Shown here in pieces: positions 4,133 to 46,050 of a stretch of DNA of 64,000 nt. Every line of letters begins with the position of its first letter. The stretch's first letter is position 1. Origin of the DNA: Escherichia coli (GTDB lineage Bacteria > Pseudomonadota > Gammaproteobacteria > Enterobacterales > Enterobacteriaceae); the NCBI RefSeq assembly GCF_036507355.1, contig NZ_AP027877.1; one strand, 5' to 3'. A program made the translations under genes and the position numbers. A model generated the notes under the pieces. It was not told where the DNA came from. It worked only from the letters and a program-made list of their open reading frames with translations, and ran no database searches.

Positions 4133-4320
4133 AACATTTCCTGCTTTAACATAATTTTCCGTTAACATAACGGGCTTTTCTCAAAATTTCATTAAATATT
4201 GTTCGCCCGTTTTCAGTACGTTACGTTTCACTGTAAGAATGGAGATTGCCCATCCCACAATCCTGGTCTAAGCCTGGAAAGGATCAATTTTCATCCGAAC
4301 GTTCCTGACAGGAGAAAACC

Positions 4321-5322: not shown

Positions 5323-5330
5323 CGCGCACA

Positions 5331-5360
5331 GGCGGAGGGAAAAAACCTCCGCCTCTTTCA
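5331..5360. terminator. Bidirectional stem-loop between convergent gapC and aldA
   Basis: ggcggaggg-aaaaaa-cctccgcc followed by a T-rich stretch, lying between the two stop codons. Confidence 0.55.
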
Positions 5361-5364
5361 CTCA

Positions 5365-6804: not shown

Positions 6805-7000
6805 GGGCGACTCCTGTGATTTATATGTTTGTTTTCGGTGAATACATTGTTAATTAACATCAATCATCATAGAGACGGCATCGTGAAAGGACAATTCTGT
6901 GAAGGGCTTCATAAAAACAAGTGTAAAAGGAATAAAAGGCAGAAATAAAAGTCAGGAGTCATGCCCGTTTGCAAACAAGTGGTTCACAAACGGGCAATTT

Positions 7001-7801: not shown

Positions 7802-8069
7802 GGTTCCTCCTTATCGTTCCCTTCAGAATACTGCGTGAGATAATAGTGAGAAGCGGAGCACTCTGAAAGGAGGAAGTCGTATGTCCTTAACCGCCACTCC
7901 GCAAGCCTGACATATCTTTTAAGGAAATGCTGTAGATAAACATTATTCATCTTGCAGCAGAGAATTGTATTTTTCAGAATTCCTGAATTTTTGCCCTTAC
8001 CGTTTTAGAATTAAAAAACCCGGCGCTAAATGCTTACCGGGTTTTAGATTTATCAGGCAAATAGCAGGG

Positions 8070-11000
8070 TTAACCGCTAATCTGCTCCATCGCCTGCAAA
8101 ATACGCTTATCTGAAATAGGATAAGGCGTACCAAGTTGTTGAGCGAAGTAACTAACGCGCAGCTCTTCTATCATCCAACGGATCTCTTTCACGTCTTCAT
8201 CCTCACGACGTGCAGGCGGCAGTTTGTTGATCCATTGCTGCCACGCCTGCTGGACGTTTTCGACTTTCAGCATCTGAGCACGGTCGCGATGCGGATCAAC
8301 CGCCAGTTTTTCCAGCCGTTTTTCAATCGCCTGCAAATAACGCAGCGTGTCGCCCAGCCGTTTGAAGCCGTTACCAGTCACAAAACCGCGATACACCAGC
8401 CCGCCCATCTGCGCTTTAATGTCAGAAAGCCCCAGCGCCATCGTCATATCCACCCGCCCTTTCAGGCGTTTGTTGATATTGAACACCGCAGTGAGGATTT
8501 GCTCGACCTGCTTCGCAATATCCACCACCGTGTCATTCAGTTCGGCGCGCACTTTTTCATGCAGCGCAGCAAAGCCTTCTTCCGTCCAGACCGGGCCACC
8601 ATTGGCGTCGATCAGTTGATCCACGCCGCAGGAGATACAATCGTCGATCAGATCCAACACTTTGCCATACGGGTTAAAGTACAGCCCTAACTTGGCTTTA
8701 TTTGGCAACTTCTCATGCAAATATTTGATTGGCGAAGGAATATTCAGCAACAGTAAACGGCGAAGGCCGTTCCACATTGCCTGTTTTTGCTCCAGCGGAT
8801 TATCAAACAGTTTGATCGCCACACTGTCGCGTTCATCAACCAGCGCAGGCCACGCCTTCACTTTGTAGTTGCCACGCTTCTGCTCGTAGCTTTCCGGCAG
8901 TTGTCCAAAGCTCCAGATATGCAGTCCGCTCTGCTCGATACCGTCATCCGCCACCGCAGACAACGTTTCCTGTACTTTGCCTTTTAGCGCCTCTTTCAGT
9001 GCCTGCAAAGAACGTCCTTCCTGAAGCTTCTTGTTTTTGTCATCCACCACGCGGAAGGTGATTTTCAGGTGATCGGGCACTTGATCCCAGTGCCAGTCTT
9101 CGCGGTCAACGGTAACGCCGGTCATCCGCCGTAACTCGCGCTCAAGGCTGTCGAGCAACGGTAACTCCAATGGTGTTGCGCGGCCTAAAAACGCTTCGGC
9201 GTAGTTTGGCGCAGGTACAAAATTACGGCGTACCGGTTTCGGCAGCGATTTAATCAGAGCAATCACCAGTTCGCGGCGCAGACCGGGGATCTGCCACTCA
9301 AACCCGCTCTCCTCAACCTGGTTAAGCAGCGGCAGCGGAATATGTACGGTCACGCCGTCAGCATCTGCCCCCGGCTCAAACTGATAGCTCAAACGCAGCT
9401 TGAGATTGCCCTGATGCCAGAAGTTCGGGTAATCCAGTTTGCTGATTTTTTCTGCGCCCTCTTTGATCAACATGCTTTTTTCAAAGTTGAGCAAATCAGG
9501 GGTTTCGCGGCTGACTTTTTTCCACCAGCTGTCGAAGTGACGAGCGGAGATTACATCGTGGCTGATGCGCTGGTCGTAGAACTCAAACAGCGTTTCGTCA
9601 TCCACCAGAATATCGCGGCGACGTGATTTGTGTTCCAGCTCTTCCACTTCCGCCCGCAGTTTCAGGTTTTCACGGAAGAATGCGTGACGCGTCTGCCAGT
9701 CACCTTCCACCAGCGCGTGGCGAATAAAGAGTTCACGACATAACGCCGGATCGATCTGGCTGTAGTTGACCTTGCGCGCAGCAACAATCGGCAAACCATA
9801 AACAGTGACTTTTTCCGTTGCCATCACCGCGCCCTGCGCCCGTTCCCAGTGCGGTTCGCTGTAGGTGCGTTTAATCAAATGCTGAGCGACAGGCTCCACC
9901 CATTCCGGGTCGATACGCGCAGCAATGCGGCCCCACAGGCGGCTGGTTTCTACCAGTTCCGCCACCATTACCCATTTCGGCGGTTTTTTGAATAAACCAG
10001 AACCGGGGAAGATGGAGAAACGCGCGTTACGTGCGCCGGTATATTCTTGTTTATCGGCATCTTTCATGCCGATATGCGAAAGCAAACCGGTCAGTAAGGC
10101 GATGTGAATTTCGCGATACTCCGCCGGTTCGCTGTTAACCGGAATGCCAAGCTCTTTCACCACCTGGCGCAACTGAGTGTAGATATCCTGCCATTCGCGC
10201 ACGCGCAGATAGTTGAGATAATCGGTACGACACAGGCGACGGAAGGCGTTAGAAGAAAGCGCCTTTTGCTGCTCGCCAAGATAATTCCACAGATTTACAA
10301 ACGCGAGGAAGTCGGATTCTTTGTCGTGGAAGCGACGATGTTTTTCGTCCGATGCCTGCTGTTTGTCCATCGGACGTTCGCGCGGATCCTGAATGGAGAG
10401 CGCGGACGTGATAATCATCGCCTCACGCACGCAGCCATGTTTTTGCGCTTCCAGCACCATACGCGCCAGACGTGGGTCGACAGGCAACTGCGAGAGCTGG
10501 CGACCGAGCGGCGTCAGTTTATAGGCGCTGGCCTGTTCATCAGTGGTGATCGCGCCCAGCTCTTCGAGCAGACGCACGCCATCCTGGATATTGCGTTTAT
10601 CCGGTGCTTCGACAAACGGGAACGCAGCGATATCGCCCAGCCCCAGCGCGGTCATCTGCAAAATAACCGAGGCCAGGTTGGTACGCAGAATCTCCGGATC
10701 GGTAAACTCCGGGCGCGAGAGGAAATCGTCTTCGGAATAGAGACGAATACAGATCCCTTCGGACACACGACCACAGCGGCCTTTACGCTGATTGGCAGAC
10801 GCCTGGGAAATCGGCTCAATCGGCAAACGCTGCACTTTGGTGCGATAGCTGTAGCGGCTGATACGTGCTGTACCGGGGTCGATAACGTATTTAATCCCCG
10901 GTACGGTCAGCGAGGTTTCCGCGACGTTGGTCGCCAGCACAATACGCCGTCCACTGTGCGACTGGAACACGCGGTTCTGTTCGCTGTTCGAAAGCCGCGC

Positions 11001-28183: not shown

Positions 28184-31100
28184 ATGATTACTATTGACGG
28201 TAATGGCGCGGTTGCTTCGGTGGCGTTTCGCACCAGTGAAGTTATCGCCATCTACCCTATTACCCCCAGTTCCACGATGGCAGAACAGGCTGATGCCTGG
28301 GCCGGAAACGGCTTGAAGAACGTTTGGGGAGACACACCACGCGTGGTTGAAATGCAGTCGGAAGCGGGTGCTATCGCTACCGTGCATGGCGCTTTGCAGA
28401 CGGGTGCCCTTTCAACATCGTTTACGTCATCGCAGGGTTTGCTGCTGATGATCCCGACGCTGTACAAACTGGCAGGCGAACTCACACCGTTTGTCCTGCA
28501 TGTAGCGGCACGTACCGTTGCCACACATGCACTCTCTATTTTTGGCGATCATTCCGACGTCATGGCGGTGCGCCAGACGGGTTGCGCGATGTTGTGTGCG
28601 GCAAACGTCCAGGAAGCGCAAGACTTTGCTCTCATTTCGCACATCGCGACGCTGAAAAGCCGCGTGCCATTTATTCATTTCTTTGATGGTTTCCGTACGT
28701 CCCACGAAATCAATAAAATTGTCCCGCTGGCCGATGACACGATTCTTGATCTCATGCCGCAGGCCGAAATTGATGCTCATCGCGCCCGGGCGCTCAACCC
28801 GGAACATCCGGTGATCCGCGGTACGTCCGCCAATCCTGACACTTATTTCCAGTCTCGCGAAGCCACCAACCCATGGTACAACGCGGTCTATGACCATGTT
28901 GAACAGGCGATGAATGATTTCTCTGCCGCGACAGGTCGTCAGTATCAGCCGTTTGAATATTACGGGCATCCGCAAGCGGAACGGGTGATTATCCTGATGG
29001 GCTCTGCCATTGGCACCTGTGAAGAAGTGGTTGATGAATTGCTAACCCGTGGCGAAAAAGTTGGCGTGCTGAAAGTTCGCCTGTACCGTCCCTTCTCCGC
29101 CAAACACTTGCTGCAAGCTCTGCCGGGATCCGTACGCAGCGTGGCGGTACTGGACAGAACCAAAGAACCCGGTGCCCAGGCAGAACCACTCTATCTGGAT
29201 GTAATGACCGCACTGGCAGAAGCCTTTAATAATGGCGAGCGCGAAACTCTGCCCCGTGTCATTGGTGGGCGCTATGGTCTTTCATCCAAAGAATTTGGCC
29301 CGGACTGTGTACTGGCGGTATTTGCCGAGCTCAACGCGGCTAAACCGAAAGCGCGCTTTACGGTTGGTATTTACGATGATGTGACCAATCTGTCACTGCC
29401 GTTGCCGGAAAACATCCTGCCAAACTCGGCGAAACTGGAAGCCTTGTTTTATGGCCTTGGCAGTGATGGCAGCGTTTCCGCGACCAAAAACAATATCAAG
29501 ATTATCGGTAATTCCACGCCGTGGTACGCACAGGGCTATTTTGTTTACGACTCCAAAAAGGCGGGCGGCCTGACGGTTTCTCACCTTCGAGTGAGCGAAC
29601 AGCCGATTCGTTCCGCTTATCTCATTTCCCAGGCTGATTTTGTTGGCTGCCACCAGTTGCAGTTTATCGATAAATATCAGATGGCTGAGCGTTTAAAACC
29701 TGGCGGCATTTTCCTGCTCAACACGCCGTACAGCGCAGATGAAGTGTGGTCGCGCTTGCCGCAAGAAGTTCAGGCCGTGTTAAACCAGAAAAAAGCGCGC
29801 TTCTATGTGATTAACGCAGCTAAAATCGCCCGCGAATGTGGCCTGGCGGCCCGTATTAATACCGTCATGCAGATGGCTTTTTTCCATCTGACGCAAATTC
29901 TGCCTGGCGATAGCGCCCTCGCAGAATTGCAGGGTGCGATTGCCAAAAGTTACAGTAGCAAAGGTCAGGATCTGGTGGAGCGCAACTGGCAGGCTCTGGC
30001 GCTGGCACGTGAATCCGTAGAAGAAGTTCCGTTGCAACCGGTAAATCCGCACAGCGCCAATCGACCGCCAGTGGTTTCCGATGCCGCCCCTGATTTCGTG
30101 AAAACCGTAACCGCTGCGATGCTCGCCGGGCTTGGTGATGCCCTCCCCGTTTCGGCGCTGCCGCCAGACGGCACCTGGCCGATGGGCACCACTCGCTGGG
30201 AAAAACGCAATATCGCCGAAGAGATCCCCATCTGGAAAGAGGAACTCTGTACCCAATGTAACCACTGCGTCGCCGCTTGCCCACACTCAGCTATTCGCGC
30301 AAAAGTGGTACCGCCTGAAGCGATGGAAAACGCCCCTGCCAGCCTGCATTCGCTGGATGTGAAATCGCGTGATATGCGCGGGCAGAAATATGTCTTGCAG
30401 GTGGCTCCGGAAGATTGCACCGGTTGTAACCTGTGCGTCGAAGTTTGCCCGGCGAAAGACCGTCAGAATCCAGAGATTAAAGCCATCAATATGATGTCGC
30501 GCCTGGAACATGTCGAAGAAGAGAAAATCAATTACGATTTCTTCCTCAACCTGCCAGAAATCAACCGTAGCAAACTGGAACGTATTGATATTCGTACATC
30601 GCAGCTGATTACACCGCTGTTTGAATATTCCGGTGCTTGCTCCGGTTGTGGCGAGACGCCGTATATTAAATTGCTGACTCAGCTCTATGGCGACCGGATG
30701 TTGATCGCTAACGCCACCGGCTGTTCTTCAATTTATGGCGGTAACCTGCCCTCTACACCGTATACCACCGATGCCAACGGTCGTGGGCCGGCATGGGCGA
30801 ACTCTCTATTTGAAGATAATGCCGAATTTGGCCTTGGTTTCCGCCTGACGGTCGATCAACACCGTGTCCGCGTGCTGCGTCTGCTGGATCAATTTGCCGA
30901 TAAAATCCCGGCGGAATTACTGACTGCATTGAAATCAGACGCCACGCCAGAGGTTCGTCGTGAACAGGTCACAGCTTTACGCCAGCAACTCAACGATGTT
31001 GCCGAAGCACATGAACTGCTGCGTGACGCAGATGCACTGGTGGAAAAATCAATCTGGCTGATTGGTGGCGACGGCTGGGCTTACGATATCGGCTTTGGCG

Positions 31101-31708
31101 GTCTGGATCATGTATTGAGTTTGACGGAAAACGTCAACATTCTGGTGCTGGATACGCAATGCTATTCCAACACCGGTGGTCAGGCGTCGAAAGCGACACC
31201 GCTGGGTGCAGTAACTAAATTTGGCGAGCACGGCAAACGTAAAGCGCGTAAAGATCTTGGCGTCAGTATGATGATGTACGGTCATGTTTATGTGGCGCAG
31301 ATTTCTCTCGGCGCGCAACTGAACCAGACGGTGAAAGCGATTCAGGAAGCGGAAGCGTATCCGGGGCCATCGCTGATCATCGCTTATAGCCCATGTGAAG
31401 AGCATGGTTACGATCTGGCACTCAGCCATGACCAGATGCGCCAACTCACAGCTACCGGCTTCTGGCCGCTATATCGCTTCGATCCGCGTCGTGCCGATGA
31501 AGGCAAACTGCCGCTGGCGCTGGATTCACGCCCGCCGTCAGAAGCACTGGAAGAAACGTTACTTCACGAGCAACGTTTCCGTCGGCTGAATTCGCAGCAG
31601 CCAGAAGTGGCAGAACAGTTATGGAAAGATGCTGCAGCTGATTTGCAAAAACGCTATGACTTCCTGGCACAAATGGCCGGAAAAGCGGAAAAAAGCAACA
31701 CCGATTAA
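28184..31708 (+). CDS. ydbK: Pyruvate:flavodoxin/ferredoxin oxidoreductase
   Basis: 1174-aa ORF with two 4Fe-4S ferredoxin motifs (CTQCNHCVAACP, CTGCNLCVEVCP) and a TPP-binding region. Confidence 0.9.
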   Translation: MITIDGNGAVASVAFRTSEVIAIYPITPSSTMAEQADAWAGNGLKNVWGDTPRVVEMQSEAGAIATVHGALQTGALSTSFTSSQGLLLMIPTLYKLAGELTPFVLHVAARTVATHALSIFGDHSDVMAVRQTGCAMLCAANVQEAQDFALISHIATLKSRVPFIHFFDGFRTSHEINKIVPLADDTILDLMPQAEIDAHRARALNPEHPVIRGTSANPDTYFQSREATNPWYNAVYDHVEQAMNDFSAATGRQYQPFEYYGHPQAERVIILMGSAIGTCEEVVDELLTRGEKVGVLKVRLYRPFSAKHLLQALPGSVRSVAVLDRTKEPGAQAEPLYLDVMTALAEAFNNGERETLPRVIGGRYGLSSKEFGPDCVLAVFAELNAAKPKARFTVGIYDDVTNLSLPLPENILPNSAKLEALFYGLGSDGSVSATKNNIKIIGNSTPWYAQGYFVYDSKKAGGLTVSHLRVSEQPIRSAYLISQADFVGCHQLQFIDKYQMAERLKPGGIFLLNTPYSADEVWSRLPQEVQAVLNQKKARFYVINAAKIARECGLAARINTVMQMAFFHLTQILPGDSALAELQGAIAKSYSSKGQDLVERNWQALALARESVEEVPLQPVNPHSANRPPVVSDAAPDFVKTVTAAMLAGLGDALPVSALPPDGTWPMGTTRWEKRNIAEEIPIWKEELCTQCNHCVAACPHSAIRAKVVPPEAMENAPASLHSLDVKSRDMRGQKYVLQVAPEDCTGCNLCVEVCPAKDRQNPEIKAINMMSRLEHVEEEKINYDFFLNLPEINRSKLERIDIRTSQLITPLFEYSGACSGCGETPYIKLLTQLYGDRMLIANATGCSSIYGGNLPSTPYTTDANGRGPAWANSLFEDNAEFGLGFRLTVDQHRVRVLRLLDQFADKIPAELLTALKSDATPEVRREQVTALRQQLNDVAEAHELLRDADALVEKSIWLIGGDGWAYDIGFGGLDHVLSLTENVNILVLDTQCYSNTGGQASKATPLGAVTKFGEHGKRKARKDLGVSMMMYGHVYVAQISLGAQLNQTVKAIQEAEAYPGPSLIIAYSPCEEHGYDLALSHDQMRQLTATGFWPLYRFDPRRADEGKLPLALDSRPPSEALEETLLHEQRFRRLNSQQPEVAEQLWKDAAADLQKRYDFLAQMAGKAEKSNTD

Positions 31709-31737
31709 ATGCTCTGGATAAGGATTATCCAATTCTA

Positions 31738-31846
31738 AAAAAAAGCCCGGACGACTGTTCGGGCTTGTCTTTTTATATGTTGGAAAATCAGTGGCAATGC
31801 AATGGCCCAACAGAAAATAAAATCTGTGACAATAAAGGCATATAAC
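31738..31846 (-). ncRNA. micC: MicC small RNA (porin regulator), divergent from ompN
   Basis: Minus strand reads GTTATATGCCTTTATTGTCACAGATTTTATTTTCTGTTGGGCCATTGCATTGCCACTGATTTTCCAACATATAAAAAGACAAGCCCGAACAGTCGTCCGGGCTTTTTTT, matching MicC as I recall it, ending in a hairpin plus T-run. Confidence 0.8.
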
Positions 31847-32073
31847 CCGCGCAGAATAACGTATAGAAAATTAAAAGTATAATTTTTATTTTGTATGTAT
31901 TATCTTCGATACATTCACCAGACTTATTATCATTTCAGAAGAATTATTTGATTAAGGTTTTACTTAAGGCGTAACAAATGATATTTATCGGCTAACTGAA
32001 CTTCTCCTTTAGGATGTTTTCACTCCCCGAAATGGGGATAAAAGGCAAATAAAATAACTAAAGGATTTATTCA

Positions 32074-33207
32074 ATGAAAAGCAAAGTACTGGCACTTTTA
32101 ATTCCTGCCCTGCTCGCCGCAGGTGCTGCACATGCAGCCGAAGTTTATAATAAAGACGGCAACAAATTAGATCTGTATGGCAAAGTTGATGGCCTGCATT
32201 ATTTTTCAGATAATTCGGCGAAAGATGGCGACCAGAGCTATGCGCGTCTGGGTTTTAAAGGCGAAACCCAAATTAACGATCAACTTACTGGCTACGGTCA
32301 ATGGGAATACAATATTCAGGCAAACAACACTGAATCTTCAAAAAACCAGTCATGGACCCGTCTGGCATTTGCCGGACTGAAATTTGCAGATTACGGTTCT
32401 TTCGATTACGGACGTAATTATGGCGTAATGTACGACATCGAAGGCTGGACCGATATGCTGCCTGAATTTGGCGGTGACTCTTATACCAATGCAGACAACT
32501 TTATGACTGGTCGAGCCAATGGCGTCGCGACTTATCGTAATACTGATTTCTTCGGTCTGGTAAATGGTCTGAACTTCGCGGTGCAGTATCAAGGTAACAA
32601 CGAAGGAGCCAGTAATGGTCAGGAAGGCACCAACAACGGACGTGATGTTCGCCATGAAAACGGTGACGGCTGGGGTCTTTCCACAACATATGATTTAGGC
32701 ATGGGCTTTAGCGCTGGTGCGGCATACACCTCTTCTGACCGCACCAATGACCAGGTTAACCATACTGCGGCGGGTGGTGATAAAGCAGACGCGTGGACTG
32801 CTGGGCTAAAATACGATGCTAACAATATTTACCTGGCAACCATGTATTCAGAAACGCGTAATATGACCCCGTTTGGCGACAGCGATTATGCTGTTGCAAA
32901 CAAAACCCAGAACTTTGAAGTCACTGCACAGTACCAGTTTGATTTTGGTCTGCGTCCGGCAGTCTCTTTCCTGATGTCTAAAGGCCGTGACCTGCACGCT
33001 GCCGGTGGTGCAGACAACCCGGCAGGTGTTGATGATAAAGATCTGGTTAAATACGCCGATGTTGGCGCGACTTACTATTTCAATAAAAACATGTCCACTT
33101 ATGTTGACTATAAAATCAACCTGTTGGATGAAGATGACAGTTTCTACGCTGCCAACGGCATCTCTACCGATGATATTGTCGCTTTAGGTCTGGTTTATCA
33201 GTTCTAA
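32074..33207 (+). CDS. ompN: Outer membrane porin (OmpC/OmpF family)
   Basis: 377-aa ORF with signal peptide ([21 protein letters not shown]), porin beta-strand pattern and C-terminal …LVYQF. Confidence 0.85.
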
Positions 33208-33215
33208 ATCCTCCT

Positions 33216-33240
33216 GCCCGCTGTTATGGCGGGCTTTTTC
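33216..33240 (+). terminator. Rho-independent terminator after ompN
   Basis: gcccgc-tgttatg-gcgggc followed by ttttt. Confidence 0.7.
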
Positions 33241-33266
33241 TGCTTATTCTTCCTCCTTTGATCTAA

Positions 33267-33782
<516 letters not shown>

Positions 33783-33789
33783 CACTAAC

Positions 33790-33815
33790 GCCCGCACATT
33801 GCTGCGGGCTTTTTG
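33790..33815 (+). terminator. Rho-independent terminator after uspF
   Basis: gcccgcacattgctgcgggc followed by ttttt. Confidence 0.7.
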
Positions 33816-33957
33816 ATTCATTTCGCAAATGTGCTGACATTTTCCCCTCTAATCCGTACCATACACGCCACAGTTTTTATATCAGATTTCTTATGCTGGG
33901 CGTTCCGGCATGACGCATACTCTTCTGATGCCATATAACGAATTGAGTCGCTTTTAA

Positions 33958-34010
33958 ATGTCGCAAAATCAAGAAATTAGCAAGAAAGAACAATACAACC
34001 TGAACAAGTA
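33958..34010 (+). pseudogene. ttcC: ttcA 5' remnant (ttcC-like) at the int-distal prophage junction
   Basis: atgtcgcaaaatcaagaaattagcaagaaagaacaatacaacctgaacaag ([17 protein letters not shown]) parallels the start of ttcA at 45115 and contains the shared att core. Confidence 0.65.
33982..34007. repeat. Prophage att core, int-distal copy (direct repeat of 45140..45165)
   Basis: About 26 bp, aagaaagaacaatacaacctgaacaa, occurs again within the start of ttcA next to intR. Confidence 0.75.
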
Positions 34011-34248
34011 AGGGCAAAAATCACAACTATCTGACTCATAAGTGTTTTACTTATTTTTCAATGTGTTAAACATCATCAGCGAGAACAATAAACTACGATA
34101 ATCAACTCTTTTTTTGCCCCTTTTTTGCCCCTTTTGCAGCGTTTTGCCCCATTTTTGCCACAAAAAAAAATTCCAAAACGTCTCAATCAAAGTCAAACCA
34201 ACCGCAGCACGTTCTTGCTTAAGACGTGCTGCGGCATAATCCCAATGA

Positions 34249-34833
34249 TTACTCCCTGACAGGGTTCGTAGGCCACTCAATATCAGGTGCAGTTGATGTA
34301 TCAACACGGTTCAGCAACACCCGATACTTTTTCCAGGCTTCCAGCAATGAGGTTTCTTCCTCCGTTGCGATTTCCAGATCCACAGCATCCTGAAGTGGCG
34401 CAATATGCTCACTGGCTACCTGCATCAGGCTGTTTTTTGTTTCTTCCGCCTCTCGGATCCGGAACAGTTTTTCTGCTTCTGCATCTTTCACCCAGGCTGT
34501 GCCGTTCCACTTCTGAAACTCCCCTTCCGGCGATAACCAGGTAACATTTTCCGGTAACGGACCGAGTTCAGAAATAAATAACGCGTCCCCTGACGCTACG
34601 TCATAAACCGTTTTACCCCGATGGTCTTCAACGAGATGCCACGATGCCTCATCACTGTTGAAAACAGCCACGAAGCCTGCCGGAATATCTGGCGGTGCAA
34701 TATCGGTACTGTTTGCTGGCAGACCTGTATGAGGCGGAATATATGCATCACCTTCACCAATAAATTCATTAGTTCCGGCCAGCAGATTATAAATTTTTAT
34801 GGTCCGTGGTTGTTCACTCATTCTGAATGCCAT
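34249..34833 (-). CDS. tfaR: Phage tail fibre assembly protein
   Basis: 194-aa ORF directly downstream of the tail-fibre remnant; Tfa-like sequence; prophage context. Confidence 0.7.
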
Positions 34834-35737
34834 TATGCAAGCCTCACAATGTAGTTAAATGCGATGTTTTTGACGGTGTTTTCCGCGTTACCCGCAGCGT
34901 TAACGGTGATGGTGTGTCCATGTGAGCCAATCGAAACAGAGTGCGTATGAGCACCAATTCCGACAGTATGTGCGTGAGCACCTGCAGATGCAGCTGTGCC
35001 GCTGACACTATGAGTGTGCGCTCCTGCAGCACTTGTATTCACACTGGCCGCAGACACAACCTTATGTACTGACCCATTTTGTGACTACTGGCTGACTGCT
35101 GATGCGCCTGTGACACTATGAGTATGGTTTCCGGCACTTGCGGCTGTACCGCTCACACTGTGTGTATGTGCCCCGGTGTTATTCGTAGATTTAGTGCCGT
35201 AATCAAACGACGATGTGGTTTTCGTACCCAAATCCGTACTGGATGCGCTGGCGCTGTGGGTGTGCGATTTAATACCGTCCTGTTCCTGAGACAATACGGC
35301 CCGACCACTGGCAGGTTTGCCCTTAATCGTCCAGCCACGCATATCAGGGATCACGCCTGACGGATAAGCGGCTGCAAGTTTCGGGTAAGCAGATTTGTCA
35401 AAAGTTTGCCCCTGCATCAGGGCATAGCCAGACGGAACGGTATCTGATGGCCACGGGATTGGTGCACCGACTGGATAAAACTCTGCAGGAGGATGAGCTG
35501 AGGTGTAAAGCTGCGCCCACGGCGACCAGTTTGCGTCGGTCGTATCCCGTCGTGAACGAATAAATGCCGGAGCATGAGCACCGCTTGTACCACTCCAGCC
35601 GATGAGTAACTCACCTTCGCCAACGGCTGTCATCCCTTTCAGGTGAATGATATTTCCATACGCTGTTGGATATCCGTTGTTATACACCTCGTATAACTCA
35701 AGACCTGTTGCCCCCTGCGTATTGTCTGTCAGCGCGG
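34833..35737 (-). pseudogene. stfR: Side tail fibre gene, C-terminal remnant with an internal frame break
   Basis: Two ORFs (35085..35687 and 34833..35057) in different frames with G-A-H-T-H-S-V-S-G-type repeats typical of tail-fibre C-termini; the N-terminal about 800 codons are absent. Confidence 0.65.
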
Positions 35738-36238
35738 TTAGCCGCCATTGTCACCAAGAAAATCCCCGCCCTGCGACATAGCGATGGAAAGAGCAGGTAT
35801 TGATTCGTAGTACGCCAGCATTTCAGAAAGGATCGCATCCAGTTTCCTTATCGGAAAATAGGCCTGGTCATAGTTGCGATCCACCCGAAACTGGAACTCG
35901 TGATAATCATCATCGAGCTGAATGAAGTATTTACACCCGACCAGTTTTGCCTGGTCGAAACAGGCATTACGGGCGTAAAAAATTGAGCGGCGGTCACAGA
36001 AATTATCGGCTTCGTCAAAACGACTGGCGATATCGGCTTTGGAAAACACCAGCACCTGTTCACCAAATTCAGCCATGTACTGATGCCGTGTCTTATCTTC
36101 ATCATCAACAACGATAAAAATTTTCCCGGTATAGCCAGCACGACGCAACGTCCGGTAAGTCAGAACTTTGTCCGGTCGCCCGTGAGTCAGAATAAAGGCG
36201 CAAAAATCATCACGCATATTCCTCCTCCTCACCACCAT
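35738..36238 (-). CDS. Prophage hypothetical protein (ydaY-like); possible nucleotide-sugar transferase-like N-terminal fold
   Basis: 166-aa ORF overlapping the upstream gene by 29 nt; motifs …IFIVVDDED… and …QLDDDY… resemble GT-A/DxD signatures (eyeball inference); abuts the tail-fibre deletion junction. Confidence 0.45.
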
Positions 36239-37001
36239 GCATGATCTCCACCATGCGCTGCGTCATCCGGACAAATCCATTTTCAATAGCCTGCTGATAA
36301 TCAATGATCACCAGCGCCGACTCCTCGAAAAAACACTGAATTTCAGCGGGGGCGTGAGCGTAATAGTCCGCAATTCTGCTGAAATTAAACACCGTGTGAC
36401 GTTCTGCCGCACACAGGAGGAATTTCTCAATATCAGGCTCAAGGGACGCCGAACGTATCCGGCTGATCAGCTCCTGAGTTTTCGTATCGTCGTACAGTTC
36501 ACTGATATCCGGTTTACCGCCCGACGGCTCATAAACAGGCGTATCAATTTTCGTCGTATACGGCTCCTCCTCATTTCCTGTACCGGGCAAAACATCCGTC
36601 AACAGTTCATCAATTTCTGTCGGGATGAAGCCTGTCAGGGAGACATCAAAATCAGCATTGATTAGGTCCGACAGCTCCATCCGCAACAGATCTTCATCCC
36701 AGCCAGCATTCATCGGCAGGCGATTATCTGCCAGGCGGTACGCCTTTTTCTGCTCATCCGTCAGGCCAGACAGAACAATGACCGGAACAGAATCCATTTT
36801 GAGCATTTCAGCCGCCATAACACGACCGTGACCCGCAATAATTTCGCCCTTTTCGTCAATCAGCACCGGATTAGTCCAGCCGAATTGCTTAATACTTTCT
36901 ACCAGTTGTGCCACCTGCTCAGTACTGTGCGTCCTGGCGTTGTGCGCATACGGTGACAATTCTTGTAATGGGCGATAGACTATCTTTAATTTCTCGCTCA
37001 T
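36210..37001 (-). CDS. ParB-like nuclease (ParB N-terminal) domain protein, prophage-encoded (ynaK-like)
   Basis: 263-aa ORF; N-terminus …YRPLQELSPYAHNARTH…LVESIKQFGWTNPVLID…IIAGHGRVMAA…VPVIVL…AYRLADNRL matches the ParB/Srx-fold signature. Confidence 0.6.
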   Translation of the reverse strand: MSEKLKIVYRPLQELSPYAHNARTHSTEQVAQLVESIKQFGWTNPVLIDEKGEIIAGHGRVMAAEMLKMDSVPVIVLSGLTDEQKKAYRLADNRLPMNAGWDEDLLRMELSDLINADFDVSLTGFIPTEIDELLTDVLPGTGNEEEPYTTKIDTPVYEPSGGKPDISELYDDTKTQELISRIRSASLEPDIEKFLLCAAERHTVFNFSRIADYYAHAPAEIQCFFEESALVIIDYQQAIENGFVRMTQRMVEIMHGGEEEEYA

Positions 37002-37138
37002 ACAGCCTTGCTTTATGAATAAAACGCACCCCAGCAGCCAGTGCTACTGGGGACGGAGGTGTTGCTGGTAAAGTTAGGTATTGGATCAATGAGTGAGTCA
37101 ACATAATATTAAACTCACAATTATAAATCAGCCATATA

Positions 37139-38596
37139 TTAGGAGCGCCAAAAAAAACCTGAAAACAATATAATAACAGGATAAATTTCAAGGCGACCAA
37201 GAATCATAGCTATGCACATTAAACATTTTGCAATGTCATTAAGCACTCCGAATGACGATGCAGTAGCCCCAAAACCTAATCCCATATTATTAATACATGC
37301 AGCCACTGTTGCAAATGATGTAAGAAAATCATATCCCATACCATTTAACACCAGTATAAAAAACACCGTGAAGAGAGTATAAAGAAAAAAGAAACTCCAT
37401 ACAGACCTCATTACACGATCTGTAACTATCTTCCCTCCTACATTTACACTCAACAACGCTCTGGGATGAGAAAGCTGATTTATCTCGTGTTTGCTTTGTT
37501 TGAAAAGTATAAGAAATCGAAGTGACTTAATTCCACCACAAGTTGAACCTATACATCCCCCAAAGAAACTTGACAACAGCAAAAACACTATCGTGTGCGT
37601 GGGCCAACTTGCATAATCCTGCGTAGCTAAACCATTATCAGTGAGCATGGAGCTGGCAAGAAAAAACGAATGAATAAAACTTCCATGCAAGTCATACATA
37701 CCTATATGCCAGACCTGGAAAGAGGTAACAATGATCACCCCTAAGGCTATTAACAGAAAGAAACGAAGTTCAATATCTCTGATTAAAGGTTTTATCGTTT
37801 TCCTGCTAATAACAATATACCAAAGAGTGAAGTTGAAAGCCGATAGCAGGGAAAAAGAACCAGCCACCAGCTCAACCAAATAGTTATTAAAATATCCGAT
37901 ACTCTCGCTATGAGTTGAGAAACCACCAAGCGAAACTGTGGAAATCCCGTGACAAATAGCATCAAACAAAGGCATTCCTGCAAGTCTATAACAGACAATA
38001 CAAGCAATACCTAATAAAGAATAAGTTATCCACAGTGTCCGTGACGTATCGGCCAGGCGGGGAGTGAGTTTGTCATCCTTAAATGGCCCCGGCATTTCTG
38101 ACTGATAAAGCTTTGCACCACCAATACCCAATAATGGCAATACAGCAACCGCCAGAACAATAACTCCTAAACCACCTATAAAATTTAACTGTGACCGATA
38201 GTACAAATATGCCCGAGGTAATGAACTAACATCATCAATTACAGTTGCTCCTGTTGTTGTTATTCCAGAAACCCCTTCAAACAGAGCATCAATGAACGTT
38301 AAATTAAGTTCTGAGTCAATCCATAAAGGGAATGCACTAATAACAGAAAACAAAATCCAAAACATTACAATTATAATAAACCCATCACGGGTACGTAATT
38401 GAATGCCAGATTTCTTAGTTGTATACCACGCTCCGCCACCAATGCAAAAAAATATAACGAAAGTTATAAAGAAAACGAACAGGCTTTTTTCTTTATAAAA
38501 CAATGCTACAACCATTGGTGGCAACATTGAAAGACTATAGAGCCAAACCAGGAACCCACACATATGAGTAACAACTCTTACATGAGATGTATTCAT
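37139..38596 (-). CDS. trkG: Trk-system potassium uptake protein (prophage cargo)
   Basis: 485-aa multi-TM TrkH/TrkG-family ORF from the internal ATG (MNTSHVRVVTH…). Confidence 0.8.
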   Translation of the reverse strand: MNTSHVRVVTHMCGFLVWLYSLSMLPPMVVALFYKEKSLFVFFITFVIFFCIGGGAWYTTKKSGIQLRTRDGFIIIVMFWILFSVISAFPLWIDSELNLTFIDALFEGVSGITTTGATVIDDVSSLPRAYLYYRSQLNFIGGLGVIVLAVAVLPLLGIGGAKLYQSEMPGPFKDDKLTPRLADTSRTLWITYSLLGIACIVCYRLAGMPLFDAICHGISTVSLGGFSTHSESIGYFNNYLVELVAGSFSLLSAFNFTLWYIVISRKTIKPLIRDIELRFFLLIALGVIIVTSFQVWHIGMYDLHGSFIHSFFLASSMLTDNGLATQDYASWPTHTIVFLLLSSFFGGCIGSTCGGIKSLRFLILFKQSKHEINQLSHPRALLSVNVGGKIVTDRVMRSVWSFFFLYTLFTVFFILVLNGMGYDFLTSFATVAACINNMGLGFGATASSFGVLNDIAKCLMCIAMILGRLEIYPVIILFSGFFWRS

Positions 38597-38733
38597 ATCT
38601 AAATATTCTTTCAATTATAACCACCTTGCTGCAATATTATGATTATACTGTATAAAATTTAACTCCTCTTAGATCTTACTTCACTGTTCCTTATGAAACA
38701 ATCATCAAAATGAATCATATTGTAGTTAAGATT

Positions 38734-38862
38734 TTACTTTAAACACTGCTCGGTTATGTATTGCTGAGCACCTTCAAGTTGGGCCTGCATCATTACCAGT
38801 CGTTCCCGGAGGGTGAAATAATCCCGTTCAGCGGTGTCTGCCAGTCGGGGGGAGGCTGCATT
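38734..38862 (-). pseudogene. rzpR: 3' ends of phage lysis genes Rz/Rz1 (rzpR/rzoR-like), 5' parts replaced by IS3
   Basis: Minus-strand translation …ADTAERDYFTLRERLVMMQAQLEGAQQYITEQCLK*, with an embedded +1-frame proline-rich Rz1 tail (…QPPPDWQTPLNGIISPSGNDW*). Confidence 0.65.
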
Positions 38863-40120
38863 TGATCCTACCCACGTAATATGGACACAGGCCTAAGCGA
38901 GGTTCTGGTTTTCAAATTGTTCCGGACTGAGGCCGCCACACCAACTGTGCCGCCGCCACCGATTGTAATCACATTCGATATAATTAAACACCGTTGCCCG
39001 CATTATTTCCCGGCTGATAAAGTGTTCTCCATGGATACATTCCACTTTCAGCGAATGAAAGAAGCTTTCCACGCAGGCATTATCGTAGCAGCAACCTTTT
39101 GCGCTCATACTTCCACGCAGATTATGCCGCTTCAGTTGCGCCTGATAATCTGCTGAACAGTACTGGCCTCCACGGTCCGTGTGAACGATAACGTTCCGGG
39201 GCCTCTTACGCCGCCACAGCGCCATCTGCAGGGCATCGCAGGCCAGTTGCGCCGTCATGCGTGGCGACATTGACCAGCCAATAACGGCACGTGACCACAG
39301 GTCAATGACCACTGCCAGATACAGCCAGCCTTCATCTGTACGTAAGTACGTGATGTCTCCTGCCCACTTCTGGTTCGGGCCACTGGCGTAAAAATCCTGC
39401 TCCAACAGATTTTCTGACACAGGCAGGCCGTGTGCGCGGTAGCTGACCGGGCTGAACTTCCGGGAGGCCTTTGCCCTCAGTCCCTGACGGCGCAGGCTTG
39501 CCGCCACGGTTTTTACGTTAAAGGGGTAACCCTGAGCACGCAGTTCATCCGTCAGGCGTGGGGCACCGTAACGCTGTTTTGACCGGGTAAAAGCCGCGAG
39601 GACAACGCTGTCGCAGTGTTGGCGGAACTGCTGACGCGTGCTTATCCTTGTCCGCCGCTGACACCACGTATACCAGCCGCTGCGGGCCACCCGGAGCACG
39701 CGGCACATTGCTTTGATGCTGAACTCAGCCTGATGTTTTTCAATAAAGACATACTTCATTTCAGGCGCTTCGCGAAGTATGTCGCGGCCTTTTGGAGGAT
39801 AGCCAGCTCTTCATCCCGTTCTGCCAGCTGGCGTTTGAGACGTGCAATCTCGGTAGACATCTCCAGTTCACGTTCAGAAGACGTCTGCTGATTTTGCTGT
39901 TTACTGCGCCAGTTGTAGAGCTGTGATTCATACAGGCTGAGTTCACGGGCTGCGGCAGTAACACCGATGCGTTCAGCAAGCTTCAGGGCTTCACTGCGAA
40001 ATTCAGGCGAATGCTGTTTACGGGGTTTTTTACTGGTTGATACTGTTTTTGTCATGTGAGTCACCTCTGACTGAGAGTTTACTCACTTAGCCGCGTGTCC
40101 ACTATTGCTGGGTAAGATCA
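38863..40120 (-). mobile_element. insEF: IS3 (1258 bp); insE/orfA 39756..40055, insF/orfB 38893..39759
   Basis: Terminal IRs TGATCCTACCCACGTAATATGGACAC… and …GTGTCCACTATTGCTGGGTAAGATCA; orfA/orfB transposase pair; flanking triplets differ, so no 3-bp target duplication. Confidence 0.9.
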
Positions 40121-40270
40121 CCGGACGCAACTGAACATCATCAGGACACGCAGCCGCTGGATGCTCAGTCACAGGTAAATTCTGTTGATGCGAAATATCA
40201 GGAACTGCGGGCAGAACTCCATGAAGCCCGGAAAAACATTCCATCAAAAAATCCTGTCGATGCCGATAAA

Positions 40271-41500
40271 TTGCTTGCTGCATCACGTGGTGAATTTGTT
40301 GACGGAATTAGCGACCCGAACGATCCGAAATGGGTAAAGGGGATCCAGACTCGCGATTGTGTGTACCAGAACCAGCCAGAAACGGAAAAAACCAGCCCAG
40401 ATATGAATCAACCTGAGCCAGTAGTGCAACAGGAACCGGAAATAGCCTGCAATGCCTGCGGCCAGACTGGCGGGGATAACTGCCCTGACTGTGGTGCGGT
40501 GATGGGCGACGCAACATACCAGGAAACATTCGATGAAGAGAGTCAGGTTGAAGCTAAGGAAAATGATCCGGAGGAAATGGAAGGCGCTGAACATCCGCAC
40601 AATGAGAATGCTGGCAGCGATCCGCATCGCGATTGCAGTGATGAAACTGGCGAAGTCGCAGATCCCGTAATCGTAGAAGACATAGAGCCAGGTATTTATT
40701 ACGGAATTTCGAATGAGAATTACCACGCGGGTCCCGGTATCAGTAAGTCTCAGCTCGATGACATTGCTGATACTCCGGCACTATATTTGTGGCGTAAAAA
40801 TGCCCCCGTGGACACCACAAAGACAAAAACGCTCGATTTAGGAACTGCTTTCCACTGCCGGGTACTTGAACCGGAAGAATTCAGTAACCGCTTTATCGTA
40901 GCACCTGAATTTAACCGCCGTACAAACGCCGGAAAAGAAGAAGAGAAAGCGTTTCTGATGGAATGCGCAAGCACAGGAAAAACGGTTATCACTGCGGAAG
41001 AAGGCCGGAAAATTGAACTCATGTATCAAAGCGTTATGGCTTTGCCGCTGGGGCAATGGCTTGTTGAAAGCGCCGGACACGCTGAATCATCAATTTACTG
41101 GGAAGATCCTGAAACAGGAATTTTGTGTCGGTGCCGTCCGGACAAAATTATCCCTGAATTTCACTGGATCATGGACGTGAAAACTACGGCGGATATTCAA
41201 CGATTCAAAACCGCTTATTACGACTACCGCTATCACGTTCAGGATGCATTCTACAGTGACGGTTATGAAGCACAGTTTGGAGTGCAGCCAACTTTCGTTT
41301 TTCTGGTTGCCAGCACAACTATTGAATGCGGACGTTATCCGGTTGAAATTTTCATGATGGGCGAAGAAGCAAAACTGGCAGGTCAACAGGAATATCACCG
41401 CAATCTGCGAACCCTGTCTGACTGCCTGAATACCGATGAATGGCCAGCTATTAAGACATTATCACTGCCCCGCTGGGCTAAGGAATATGCAAATGACTAA
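40271..41500 (+). CDS. recE: Exonuclease VIII (RecE) C-terminal portion, N-terminal part of gene missing
   Basis: 409-aa ORF ending …[12 protein letters not shown] just upstream of recT and beginning shortly after the IS3 end; contains the nuclease-domain region. Confidence 0.7.
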
Positions 41501-42302
41501 GCAACCACCAATCGCAAAAGCCGATCTGCAAAAAACTCAGGGAAACCGTGCACCAGCAGCAGTTAAAAATAGCGACGTGATTAGTTTTATTAACCAGCCA
41601 TCAATGAAAGAGCAACTGGCAGCAGCTCTTCCACGCCATATGACGGCTGAACGTATGATCCGTATCGCCACCACAGAAATTCGTAAAGTTCCGGCGTTAG
41701 GAAACTGTGACACTATGAGTTTTGTCAGTGCGATCGTACAGTGTTCACAGCTCGGACTTGAGCCAGGTAGCGCCCTCGGTCATGCATATTTACTGCCTTT
41801 TGGTAATAAAAACGAAAAGAGCGGTAAAAAGAACGTTCAGCTAATCATTGGCTATCGCGGCATGATTGATCTGGCTCGCCGTTCTGGTCAAATCGCCAGC
41901 CTGTCAGCCCGTGTTGTCCGTGAAGGTGACGAGTTTAGCTTCGAATTTGGCCTTGATGAAAAGTTAATACACCGCCCGGGAGAAAACGAAGATGCCCCGG
42001 TTACCCACGTCTATGCTGTCGCAAGACTGAAAGACGGAGGTACTCAGTTTGAAGTTATGACGCGCAAACAGATTGAGCTGGTGCGCAGCCTGAGTAAAGC
42101 TGGTAATAACGGGCCGTGGGTAACTCACTGGGAAGAAATGGCAAAGAAAACGGCTATTCGTCGCCTGTTCAAATATCTGCCCGTATCAATTGAGATCCAG
42201 CGTGCAGTATCAATGGATGAAAAGGAACCACTGACAATCGATCCTGCAGATTCCTCTGTATTAACCGGGGAATACAGTGTAATCGATAATTCAGAGGAAT
42301 AA
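41493..42302 (+). CDS. recT: Single-strand annealing recombinase RecT
   Basis: 269-aa ORF from the internal ATG ([29 protein letters not shown]…), overlapping the recE stop. Confidence 0.85.
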
Positions 42303-42346: not shown

Positions 42347-43330
42347 ATGAGAAAAATTATGAGATATGACAATGTTGGTGATGCTGCCAACTTACTGATT
42401 TAGTGTATGATGGTGTTTTTGAGGTGCTCCAGTGGCTTCTGTTTCTATCAGCTGTCCCTCCTGTTCAGCTACTGACGGGGTGGTGCGTAACGGCAAAAGC
42501 ACCGCCGGACATCAGCGCTATCTCTGCTCTCACTGCCGTAAAACATGGCAACTGCAGTTCACTTACACCGCTTCTCAACCCGGTACGCACCAGAAAATCA
42601 TTGATATGGCCATGAATGGCGTTGGATGCCGGGCAACAGCCCGCATTATGGGCATTGGCCTCAACACGATTTTACGTCACTTAAAAAACTCAGGCCGCAG
42701 TCGGTAACCTCGCGCATACAGCCGGGCAGTGACGTCATCGTCTGCGCGGAAATGGACGAACAGTGGGGCTATGTCGGGGCTAAATCGCGCCAGCGCTGGC
42801 TGTTTTACGCGTATGACAGGCTCCGGAAGACGGTTGTTGCGCACGTATTCGGTGAACGCACGATGGCGACGCTGGGGCGTCTTATGAGCCTGCTGTCACC
42901 CTTTGACGTGGTGATATGGATGACGGATGGCTGGCCGCTGTATGAATCCCGCCTGAAGGGAAAGCTGCACGTAATCAGCAAGCGATATACGCAGCGAATT
43001 GAGCGGCATAACCTGAATCTGAGGCAGCACCTGGCACGGCTGGGACGGAAGTCGCTGTCGTTCTCAAAATCGGTGGAGCTGCATGACAAAGTCATCGGGC
43101 ATTATCTGAACATAAAACACTATCAATAAGTTGGAGTCATTACCGACAATGTTAAACCATGTCCATTTTGTGGTTGTCCATCAGTAACGGTGAAAGCCAT
43201 TTCAGGATATTACCGAGCGAAGTGTAACGGATGCGAATCCCGAACCGGTTATGGTGGAAGTGAAAAAGAAGCACTCGAAAGATGGAATAAACGAACCACT
43301 GGAAATAATAATGGAGGTGTTCATGTATAA
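42347..43330 (+). pseudogene. ralR: lar/ralR (restriction alleviation; type I TA toxin) interrupted by IS1
   Basis: 5' codons (MRKIMRYDNV) at 42347..42376 and the remainder (…KPCPFCGCPSVTVKAISGYYRAKCNGCESRTGYGGSEKEALERWNKRTTGNNNGGVHV*) at 43145..43330, separated by IS1 with a duplicated GACAATGTT. Confidence 0.7.
42377..43144 (+). mobile_element. insAB: IS1 (768 bp), copy 3, simple insertion; insA 42432..42707, insB' 42626..43129
   Basis: Terminal IRs present; perfect 9-bp target-site duplication GACAATGTT at 42368..42376 and 43145..43153. Confidence 0.9.
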
Positions 43331-43532
43331 AATTACCGCCACTATTGAAAAGGAAGGTGGCACTCCTACTAACTGGACAAGATATTCAAAATCTAAACTA
43401 ACGAAATCAGAATGCGAAAAAATGCTCTCAGGTAAAAAAGAAGCAGGCGTTTCCAGAGAGCAGAAAGTAAAACTGATAAATTTTAATTGCGAGAAACTTC
43501 AGTCCTCGAGAATTGCATTGTATTCAAATTAA
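43323..43532 (+). CDS. ydaC: Small prophage protein
   Basis: 69-aa ORF MYKITATIEKEGGTPTNWTRYSKSK… whose start overlaps the lar stop; symbol from position between lar and xisR. Confidence 0.6.
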   Translation: MYKITATIEKEGGTPTNWTRYSKSKLTKSECEKMLSGKKEAGVSREQKVKLINFNCEKLQSSRIALYSN

Positions 43533-43610
43533 AACTTCATAGCTGATTATTAATAATCAACATCGGGCGTCAATTTCAGTCTAACATTGGCGCCTGCCAG
43601 AGGTGATGCG

Positions 43611-43826
43611 ATGGCACAAGTAATCTTTAATGAAGAGTGGATGGTTGAATACGGCCTGATGCTTCGCACTGGTCTGGGGGCCAGACAAATTGAAGCATAC
43701 CGCCAGAACTGTTGGGTGGAGGGCTTCCACTTCAAACGAGTATCTCCTTTAGGTAAGCCAGACAGCAAACGAGGGATTATCTGGTACAACTATCCAAAGA
43801 TAAATCAGTTTATCAAAGACTCATGA
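43611..43826 (+). CDS. xisR: Prophage excisionase
   Basis: 71-aa ORF from the internal ATG ([17 protein letters not shown]…) immediately upstream of the integrase. Confidence 0.7.
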
Positions 43827-43827
43827 T

Positions 43828-45063
43828 ATGTCTAAATTACCAACAGGTGTCGAGATTAGAGGTAGATACATTCGCATCTGGTTCATGTTTCGAGGAAAAC
43901 GATGTCGGGAAACATTAAAAGGCTGGGAGATTACAAACAGTAATATTAAAAAGGCCGGAAATTTAAGAGCGCTGATAGTTCATGAAATAAACTCCGGTGA
44001 ATTTGAGTATTTAAGACGTTTTCCCCAGTCCAGCACTGGGGCAAAAATGGTGACAACGAGAGTCATAAAAACGTTCGGAGAGCTTTGTGATATCTGGACA
44101 AAAATTAAAGAGACAGAGTTAACAACAAACACAATGAAGAAAACGAAATCACAATTAAAAACACTCAGAATAATAATTTGTGAAAGTACCCCGATATCAC
44201 ATATTCGTTATAGCGATATCTTAAACTACCGGAATGAACTGCTGCATGGAGAAACGCTTTACCTGGATAATCCAAGATCCAACAAAAAAGGAAGAACCGT
44301 GCGCACAGTTGATAACTATATCGCCCTGCTCTGTTCGCTGTTGCGTTTTGCGTATCAGTCGGGATTTATATCAACCAAACCATTTGAAGGAGTAAAAAAA
44401 TTACAGCGAAACAGAATAAAGCCTGATCCGTTATCTAAAACAGAATTCAATGCATTAATGGAAAGTGAAAAAGGACAGAGCCAGAACTTGTGGAAATTTG
44501 CCGTTTACTCAGGACTTCGTCACGGGGAACTGGCAGCTCTGGCGTGGGAGGATGTGGATCTCGAAAAGGGAATAGTGAATGTCAGAAGAAACCTGACGAT
44601 ACTTGATATGTTCGGTCCCCCAAAAACAAATGCCGGGATCCGAACAGTAACACTACTGCAGCCTGCTCTTGAAGCACTGAAGGAGCAATACAAACTGACC
44701 GGGCATCATCGCAAAAGCGAAATCACCTTTTATCATCGGGAGTACGGCAGAACCGAAAAGCAAAAACTGCATTTTGTTTTCATGCCCAGGGTGTGTAACG
44801 GAAAACAAAAACCTTATTACTCGGTAAGCAGTTTGGGGGCAAGGTGGAATGCAGCAGTAAAACGTGCTGGTATTCGCCGCCGTAATCCGTACCATACGCG
44901 GCATACTTTTGCCTGCTGGCTGTTGACGGCAGGAGCGAACCCGGCATTTATAGCCAGCCAAATGGGGCATGAAACTGCGCAGATGGTGTATGAAATTTAC
45001 GGTATGTGGATTGATGACATGAACGACGAACAGATAGCCATGTTGAATGCGCGGTTATCGTAG
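43828..45063 (+). CDS. intR: Prophage tyrosine integrase
   Basis: 411-aa ORF with the C-terminal catalytic tyrosine-recombinase region (…HTRHTFACWLLTAGANP…QMGHET…MVYEIY…). Confidence 0.85.
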   Translation: MSKLPTGVEIRGRYIRIWFMFRGKRCRETLKGWEITNSNIKKAGNLRALIVHEINSGEFEYLRRFPQSSTGAKMVTTRVIKTFGELCDIWTKIKETELTTNTMKKTKSQLKTLRIIICESTPISHIRYSDILNYRNELLHGETLYLDNPRSNKKGRTVRTVDNYIALLCSLLRFAYQSGFISTKPFEGVKKLQRNRIKPDPLSKTEFNALMESEKGQSQNLWKFAVYSGLRHGELAALAWEDVDLEKGIVNVRRNLTILDMFGPPKTNAGIRTVTLLQPALEALKEQYKLTGHHRKSEITFYHREYGRTEKQKLHFVFMPRVCNGKQKPYYSVSSLGARWNAAVKRAGIRRRNPYHTRHTFACWLLTAGANPAFIASQMGHETAQMVYEIYGMWIDDMNDEQIAMLNARLS

Positions 45064-45114
45064 TTGCAAAGTTTGCCCCCAATTTGCCCCATTTAGTACC
45101 AGGGAACTGAAATA

Positions 45115-46050
45115 ATGCAAGAAAATCAACAAATTACAAAGAAAGAACAATACAACCTGAACAAATTACAAAAACGCCTGCGTCGTAACGTGGGCGAAGC
45201 CATTGCTGACTTCAATATGATTGAAGAAGGCGATCGCATCATGGTTTGCCTCTCCGGGGGTAAAGACAGCTATACCATGCTGGAGATTCTGCGCAATTTG
45301 CAGCAAAGCGCGCCAATCAATTTTTCGCTGGTGGCTGTTAACCTCGATCAAAAGCAACCGGGCTTCCCGGAACACGTTCTGCCCGAGTATCTTGAAAAGC
45401 TGGGCGTTGAGTACAAGATTGTTGAAGAGAACACTTACGGTATCGTGAAAGAGAAGATTCCAGAGGGCAAAACCACTTGCTCACTGTGTTCTCGGCTACG
45501 TCGCGGTATCCTTTATCGCACCGCAACGGAACTGGGGGCGACGAAGATCGCGCTGGGTCACCATCGTGACGATATCCTGCAAACGCTGTTCTTAAATATG
45601 TTCTACGGCGGCAAGATGAAAGGTATGCCTCCGAAATTGATGAGCGATGATGGCAAACATATCGTGATTCGTCCGCTGGCCTACTGCCGCGAGAAAGATA
45701 TTCAGCGCTTTGCCGATGCAAAAGCGTTCCCGATTATTCCGTGCAACCTGTGCGGTTCACAGCCTAACCTGCAACGTCAGGTGATTGCTGACATGTTGCG
45801 TGACTGGGATAAACGTTATCCGGGGCGTATCGAGACGATGTTCAGCGCGATGCAGAATGTGGTGCCATCGCATCTGTGCGATACCAACCTGTTCGATTTT
45901 AAAGGCATTACCCACGGTTCTGAAGTGGTTAACGGGGGTGATCTGGCGTTTGATCGCGAAGAGATCCCACTACAACCGGCGGGCTGGCAGCCAGAAGAAG
46001 ATGAAAATCAGTTGGATGAGTTACGGCTGAATGTGGTTGAAGTGAAATAA
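45115..46050 (+). CDS. ttcA: tRNA 2-thiocytidine(32) synthetase
   Basis: 311-aa ORF with PP-loop (…[11 protein letters not shown]…) and Cys clusters. Confidence 0.85.
45140..45165. repeat. Prophage att core, int-proximal copy inside the 5' end of ttcA
   Basis: aaagaaagaacaatacaacctgaacaa matches 33982..34007. Confidence 0.75.

Follow-up and report, generated by a model that had tools for sequence, protein, structure and literature searches.

The recE-recT region described here belongs to a decayed Rac prophage of Escherichia coli, and we consider it probable, at about 80%, that it holds a silent recE pseudogene followed by a promoterless recT rather than an activated recombination system. 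The region lies within a 64,000-nucleotide stretch of contig NZ_AP027877.1 (the whole of which we call the window), in which a complete IS3 connects the 3' part of the Rz/Rz1 genes to the 3' part of recE. We propose that IS3 inserted near the 3' end of Rz/Rz1 and then lost its original right flank, either through an adjacent deletion made by IS3 or through recombination between IS3 copies, and that this loss set the IRL of the element against codon 408 of recE. As it stands, recE is a 5'-truncated pseudogene, stripped of its promoter, RBS, and start codon, and recT is intact yet promoterless. We infer that recE'-recT is most likely silent, with background transcription at most, like recET in wild-type K-12.

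Anatomy of the Rac remnant

A reduced Rac prophage occupies ttcA in the window, in the orientation opposite to that of the MG1655 record. By BLAST, the window and MG1655 share three colinear blocks (Table 1); the gap between the first and second blocks is the complete IS3, and the gap between the second and third is an IS1. IS3 stands in place of 7349 bp of MG1655, and the sequences missing relative to that strain comprise recE codons 1-407, racC, ydaE, kilR, sieB, ydaF, ydaG, racR, ydaS-W, and the 5' part of rzpR. What is left of rzpR next to IS3 is its last 129 nt, colinear with K-12, and this remnant overlaps the 3' 70 nt of rzoR (Rz1) at 38793-38862.

Table 1. Positions of the Rac remnant features in the window, with their K-12 counterparts where available
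Feature	Position	Strand	Remarks
Block 1	37000-38862		MG1655 locus L003 16379-14517; trkG, intergenic region, rzpR/rzoR 3' end
trkG	37139-38596	-	Rac cargo gene, intact, in the left arm of the remnant; colinear with K-12 trkG, 99.9% identity
rzpR (Rz) 3' remnant	38734-38862	-	Last 42 codons and stop; matches K-12 L003 14517-14645
IS3, complete	38863-40120	-	1258 bp; IRR at 38863, IRL at 40120
IS3 orfB	38893-39759	-	288 aa; overlaps orfA
IS3 orfA	39756-40064	-	102 aa; overlaps orfB
Block 2	40120/1-42376		L003 7167-4911; recE from codon 408, recT, first ralR codons
recE pseudogene fragment	40121-41500	+	Codons 408-866 and stop, by comparison with K-12
RecE nuclease domain	40715-41497	+	Residues 606-866, complete; full-length alignment to PDB 3H4R, E = 4e-181
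recT	41493-42302	+	Intact, 269 aa; identical to K-12 RecT
IS1	42377-43144	+	Simple insertion; 9-bp duplication GACAATGTT
Block 3	43145-46000		L003 4919-2064; ralR, rcbA, xisR, intR, ttcA
RalA antitoxin sRNA	43329-43507	-	Intact; Rfam RF02694, 225 bits

We recognized IS3 by a length of about 1258 bp, inverted repeats beginning TGATC, and orfA and orfB with a programmed -1 frameshift; the element in the window has exactly this size and its two reading frames overlap. Beyond its first 3 bp, the sequence has two differences from K-12 IS3A, and bases 4-150 of the IRL end are identical between the two elements. The IRR adjoins Rz and the IRL, which lies upstream of the transposase, adjoins recE; the transposase gene and recE diverge, and IS3 transcribes away from recE. 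The flanking sequences are ...GGCTGCATT on the Rz side and CCGGACG... on the recE side. No 3-bp target duplication is present at the element, the adjoining triplets being ATT and CCG, and IS3 is not a simple insertion at this place. The absence of a duplication points to a secondary deletion or recombination and is not evidence against the identity of the element. The layout given in the preliminary description, an IS3 without target duplication joining the 3' end of Rz/Rz1 to recE, was therefore confirmed.

recE resumes at 40121, the first base of codon 408 in the 866-codon K-12 gene, and 459 codons are kept in frame without a single internal stop. The preliminary description had rightly stated that the C-terminal part of recE is retained, but its count of 409 codons is that of the open reading frame beginning at TTG 40271. 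Over residues 408-866 there is one residue change from K-12 RecE, D455A. The C-terminal PD-(D/E)XK nuclease domain (approximately 606-866) is intact. The claim that the retained part contains the region sufficient for exonuclease activity also stood, since 3H4R is fully covered and the exonuclease activity of E588 (RecE residues 588-866) has been reported to be intact (PMC11257833). The start codon, RBS, and promoter are all deleted, and what remains is not a complete gene; the same IS3-recE junction in the genome Ec1120 is annotated as a pseudogene by PGAP. That the fragment carries no disabling mutations says little, because it is about 99.9% identical to K-12. Among 5426 complete E. coli genomes, the collection used for all genome comparisons, the C-terminal half of recE and recT are present at a coverage of at least 80% in 1692.

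Directly after recE comes recT, which, as had been described, is intact: a full-length open reading frame homologous to Rac RecT. Its ATG overlaps the recE stop, its Shine-Dalgarno sequence is AAGGAA, and it has no promoter of its own. Across the 2256 bp of the recE'-recT block there are two differences from MG1655, at 40263 and 42177.

Beyond recT, IS1 splits the ralR toxin gene after codon 6 (window 42359-43330) and cuts the start codon and promoter from the remainder. The outcome is a beheaded toxin gene beside an orphan RalA antitoxin.

The far left arm has features of its own. The interval 34235-36750 is unlike K-12, and a 263-aa full-length ParB/Srx-like gene at 36210-37001 has the truncated ynaK as its K-12 counterpart. 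IS009 is found at 34292-34490 on the minus strand (Rfam RF02111, 225.8 bits), near the pinR/tfaR-like region. No colinear match across 30000-38862 was found among the complete E. coli genomes in the collection, and the best matches to the nifJ-ompN flank are only about 98.5-98.9% identical. Likewise, queries of 5.5 kb and 8.9 kb returned no record colinear across the region among these complete genomes. The components (IS3, IS1, and the Rac genes recE, recT, ralR, and RalA) are all already known, and their arrangement adds a new case to the decay of prophages through IS elements.

Expression signals of recE'-recT

It had been suggested that the arrangement resembles the sbcA-type rearrangements that activate RecET in K-12. 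In a natural activation of this kind, RacR would have been lost, recE'-recT would have come under a promoter in or created by IS3, and translation from an internal ATG (codon 502 or 560, for example) would yield a shortened RecE that is still active and that, with RecT, confers constitutive RecET recombination. Several features are in keeping with such an activation: the nuclease domain is complete and RecT is kept; racR is deleted; internal ATGs lie upstream of residue 588, with GGAGG next to ATG560; N-terminally truncated RecE, in the form of E588, is active (PMC11257833); and single point mutations can make promoters in IS3 ends (PMC12095673). We nevertheless regard natural activation as very unlikely, on the grounds of the transcription and translation signals considered here and of the junctions considered below.

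First, nothing that we detected would transcribe the two genes. The native early-left promoter is deleted, as is racR. It is the IRL that faces recE, and IS3 transcription runs away from it. We scanned the plus strand for matches to the promoter consensus, a procedure that overlooks weak or non-sigma-70 promoters, and found no promoter-like site scoring at least 9/12 within IS3 or across the junction. One scan gave no site over 38823-40757; in a second, the matches near the IRL were limited to two of 8/12. The best plus-strand site of the region, scoring 10/12, is at 40758-40787, within the nuclease domain; it is identical in K-12, with neither of the MG1655 differences falling there, and gives no measurable activity in that strain. 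This site cannot explain activation, because it is also present in K-12, where recET is described as completely repressed (MG1655; PMC3945230).

Second, the ends of IS3 have been studied directly. Fuqua and Wagner worked with the terminal 150 bp of IS3 on the left and on the right, since promoter activity was undetectable on both strands (PMC12095673), a dual reporter having detected none. Earlier candidates for outward promoters of IS3 lie only in its right end, and a promoter needs to be within about 150 bp of an IS end to drive a neighbor (PMC12095673). Wild-type IS3 ends are thus promoter-inactive, and the IRL end in the window has the K-12 sequence. On the scans and the published reporter data (PMC12095673), we rejected both an outward promoter borne by IS3 and a hybrid promoter at the junction. 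No outward promoter was found near the IS3 end at 40120, and the likeness to sbcA is not supported, as the native promoter, RBS, and ATG are deleted and the element transcribes away from recE.

Third, no start codon is available at the junction. The recE frame reads back 10 codons into IS3, to TAG 40088-40090, and contains no ATG, GTG, or TTG between this stop and TTG 40271, which has no Shine-Dalgarno sequence. A translational fusion of recE into IS3 was rejected on these grounds. The preliminary description had named an in-frame stop or the lack of a usable start as findings that would make the fragment untranslatable; the former is absent, the fragment being open, whereas the latter applies to the stretch from TAG 40088 to TTG 40271. 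The first in-frame ATGs of recE are codons 502, 535, and 560. The Shine-Dalgarno sequences of ATG502 and ATG535 are weak, and at ATG560 the spacing of the GGAGG, 2 nt, is too short. Hence, the reading frame of the nuclease domain is open, with only internal starts available, all with weak or mis-spaced Shine-Dalgarno sequences.

Two counterpoints to silence should be kept in view. ATG560, with GGAGG 2 nt upstream, would yield a RecE564-like protein given an mRNA, and the Shine-Dalgarno sequence of recT is reasonable. If weak transcription invisible to the scan, arising for example from antisense read-out of IS3 or from a non-canonical promoter at the junction, were combined with initiation at ATG502 or ATG560, a RecE564-like nuclease would be made together with RecT, giving low RecET activity. 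We give this combination a very slim chance. The locus could behave differently from K-12, because it has lost both its native context and the repressor RacR. Overall, the signals around the junction favor a silent recE pseudogene and a promoterless recT.

Junctions shared with other genomes and the order of events

To place the two ends of IS3 in a wider context, we compared them with the 5426 genomes. The junction between the IRL and recE codon 408 occurs in three (Ec1120, NZ_CP126598; OY754416; and OY754389), and in each of them IS3 is bordered on its far side by a DUF977 gene, belonging to a module unrelated to K-12 Rac. A junction found in only 3/5426 genomes also speaks against natural activation. 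The junction between Rz and the IRR, in which ...GGCTGCATT runs directly into TGATCC, was matched without a break in about ten genomes, with a variety of right flanks. In B27, where the prophage occupies the bioA/lambda attachment site, it is joined to a fragment of lysozyme. In MB50, its partner is a divergent recE, of which only the last ~38 codons remain before recT, and the nuclease domain is gone. In ETEC1720 and ETEC1739, it is joined to DNA upstream of ral-cIII-kil-gam-bet-exo. In these four genomes, which were the ones examined individually, no ATT duplication is present at the Rz-IS3 junction.

Such a pattern, with one end of the IS constant and several distal partners at the other, is the mark of adjacent deletions, of IS3-IS3 recombination, or of both. 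With three other right flanks known for the identical Rz-IS3 junction, several deletions or recombinations appear to have been anchored at IS3, and the place in recE where the one in the window ended looks arbitrary. Retention of the nuclease domain looks accidental for the same reason, one of the three other junctions removing this domain. The MB50 deletion, which starts from the same IS3 anchor and destroys the nuclease domain, weighs further against activation, in that nothing suggests selection for the domain.

The two ETEC genomes deserve a separate remark. At about 4080-8160 of their loci (L007 for ETEC1720 and L008 for ETEC1739), trkG-Rz-IS3 stands directly upstream of a lambda-type Red block. 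This layout parallels IS3-recE'-recT, with the Red module replacing RecET, and here too pL/N, the part nearest the promoter, seems to have been deleted.

Meanwhile, the 3' part of Rz/Rz1 beside trkG has received IS3 more than once: three independent IS3 sites fall within 48 bp (window 38815-38862 and its equivalents), all in one orientation. A23 carries a simple insertion 6 bp from the window site, with the duplication GGC, and 23CRST025 carries another 42 bp away, with the duplication ATA; the third is the ATT site of the window. This clustering suggests that the 3' part of Rz is a hot region for IS3 targeting. We rejected 23CRST025 as a precursor of the window arrangement, as its own duplication marks an independent insertion.

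The left arm of the window (35741-38862) is colinear with a remnant of the BE2-5 type, in which Rz is fused to recE at codon ~241 without any IS. In BE2-5 itself (L006 9058) and nine further genomes, this IS-less deletion has brought recE and the 5' part of Rz together in a head-to-head fusion, so that the junction is found in 10 of the 5426 genomes. Relative to the BE2-5 type, IS3 replaces only 694 bp. Because the left arm is colinear with this type and only 694 bp is missing by comparison, the immunity, kil, and replication region, and with it most of the 7.3 kb, may already have been gone before IS3 arrived; IS3 would then have trimmed a little more.

The order of events can also be turned around, with IS3 inserting first into an intact recE at codon 407/408 and the Rz junction arising later, through homologous recombination with a second IS3 copy in Rz or through exchange with another prophage. 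A single IS3-IS3 crossover would then delete the whole 7.3-kb center, with no need for a prior IS-less deletion and a 694-bp loss. Such a history gains from the separate occurrence of each junction elsewhere with different partners, and from the clustering of IS3 insertions in Rz in the same orientation. It is weakened by the left arm of the window, which matches a BE2-5 lineage already without the central region, and by the fact that a simple insertion with target duplication was found at neither site in the 5426 genomes. We consider it unlikely. Indeed, a composite junction query for the ancestral simple insertions (recE...CCG followed by IS3, or IS3 followed by ATT...Rz) gave no single-piece match in these genomes. 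Because no duplication-flanked ancestor was found, we infer rather than observe that IS3 entered Rz first. The functional conclusion is unchanged under either history.

Relation to known systems and implications

The closest known system is recET of K-12 Rac (recE, b1350; recT, b1349), which has the same genes, in the same order and at the same ttcA integration site. The two differ in that K-12 Rac has recE 1-407 and the stretch from racC to the 5' part of rzpR, whereas the window has IS3, in addition to a ralR split by IS1. The Ec1120-type remnant (NZ_CP126598, OY754416, and OY754389) shares with the window the IRL of IS3 set against recE codon 408 and followed by recT. It differs in having a DUF977 gene beyond IS3, where the window has Rz-trkG, and a ralR without IS1. 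The window also fits the pattern of adjacent (nested) IS-mediated deletions, with one left junction, four right flanks, and no target duplication; a pattern in the sequence alone cannot separate intramolecular transposition from IS3-IS3 homologous recombination or prophage exchange.

Some sbcA alleles, known from work in the Clark laboratory, are deletions (sbcA8-type). Like the sbcA mutations of K-12, the window has a Rac rearrangement upstream of the nuclease part of recE, with repressor control lost. sbcA mutations act by switching on recE expression (PMC10956419, PMC3945230), and the alleles are defined by the expression of exonuclease VIII (PMC10956419), whereas the rearranged locus supplies no promoter or start codon. 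An sbcA-type rearrangement would call for a promoter that reads into recE-recT free of Rac repression, and in the window racR and the native promoter have gone together.

Expression of recE'-recT would endow a natural isolate with RecA-independent activity of a recombineering-like kind, a matter of consequence for genome plasticity as well as strain engineering; in the case of cryptic transcription, it would be a wild isolate with a naturally de-repressed, RacR-less mini-RecET. The evidence points away from expression, and the region is a further example of IS elements whittling down cryptic prophages. It is also a clean illustration of this process, a single IS3 anchor in Rz having, in one E. 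coli genome or another, four different distal partners. We suggest that the only remaining role of recE'-recT may be to supply material for rescue by an infecting phage. Lambda rev phages acquire such genes from Rac by recombination (PMC3945230), and the locus is a reservoir of an intact recT and a RecE nuclease domain, open to pick-up through recombination with lambdoid phages.
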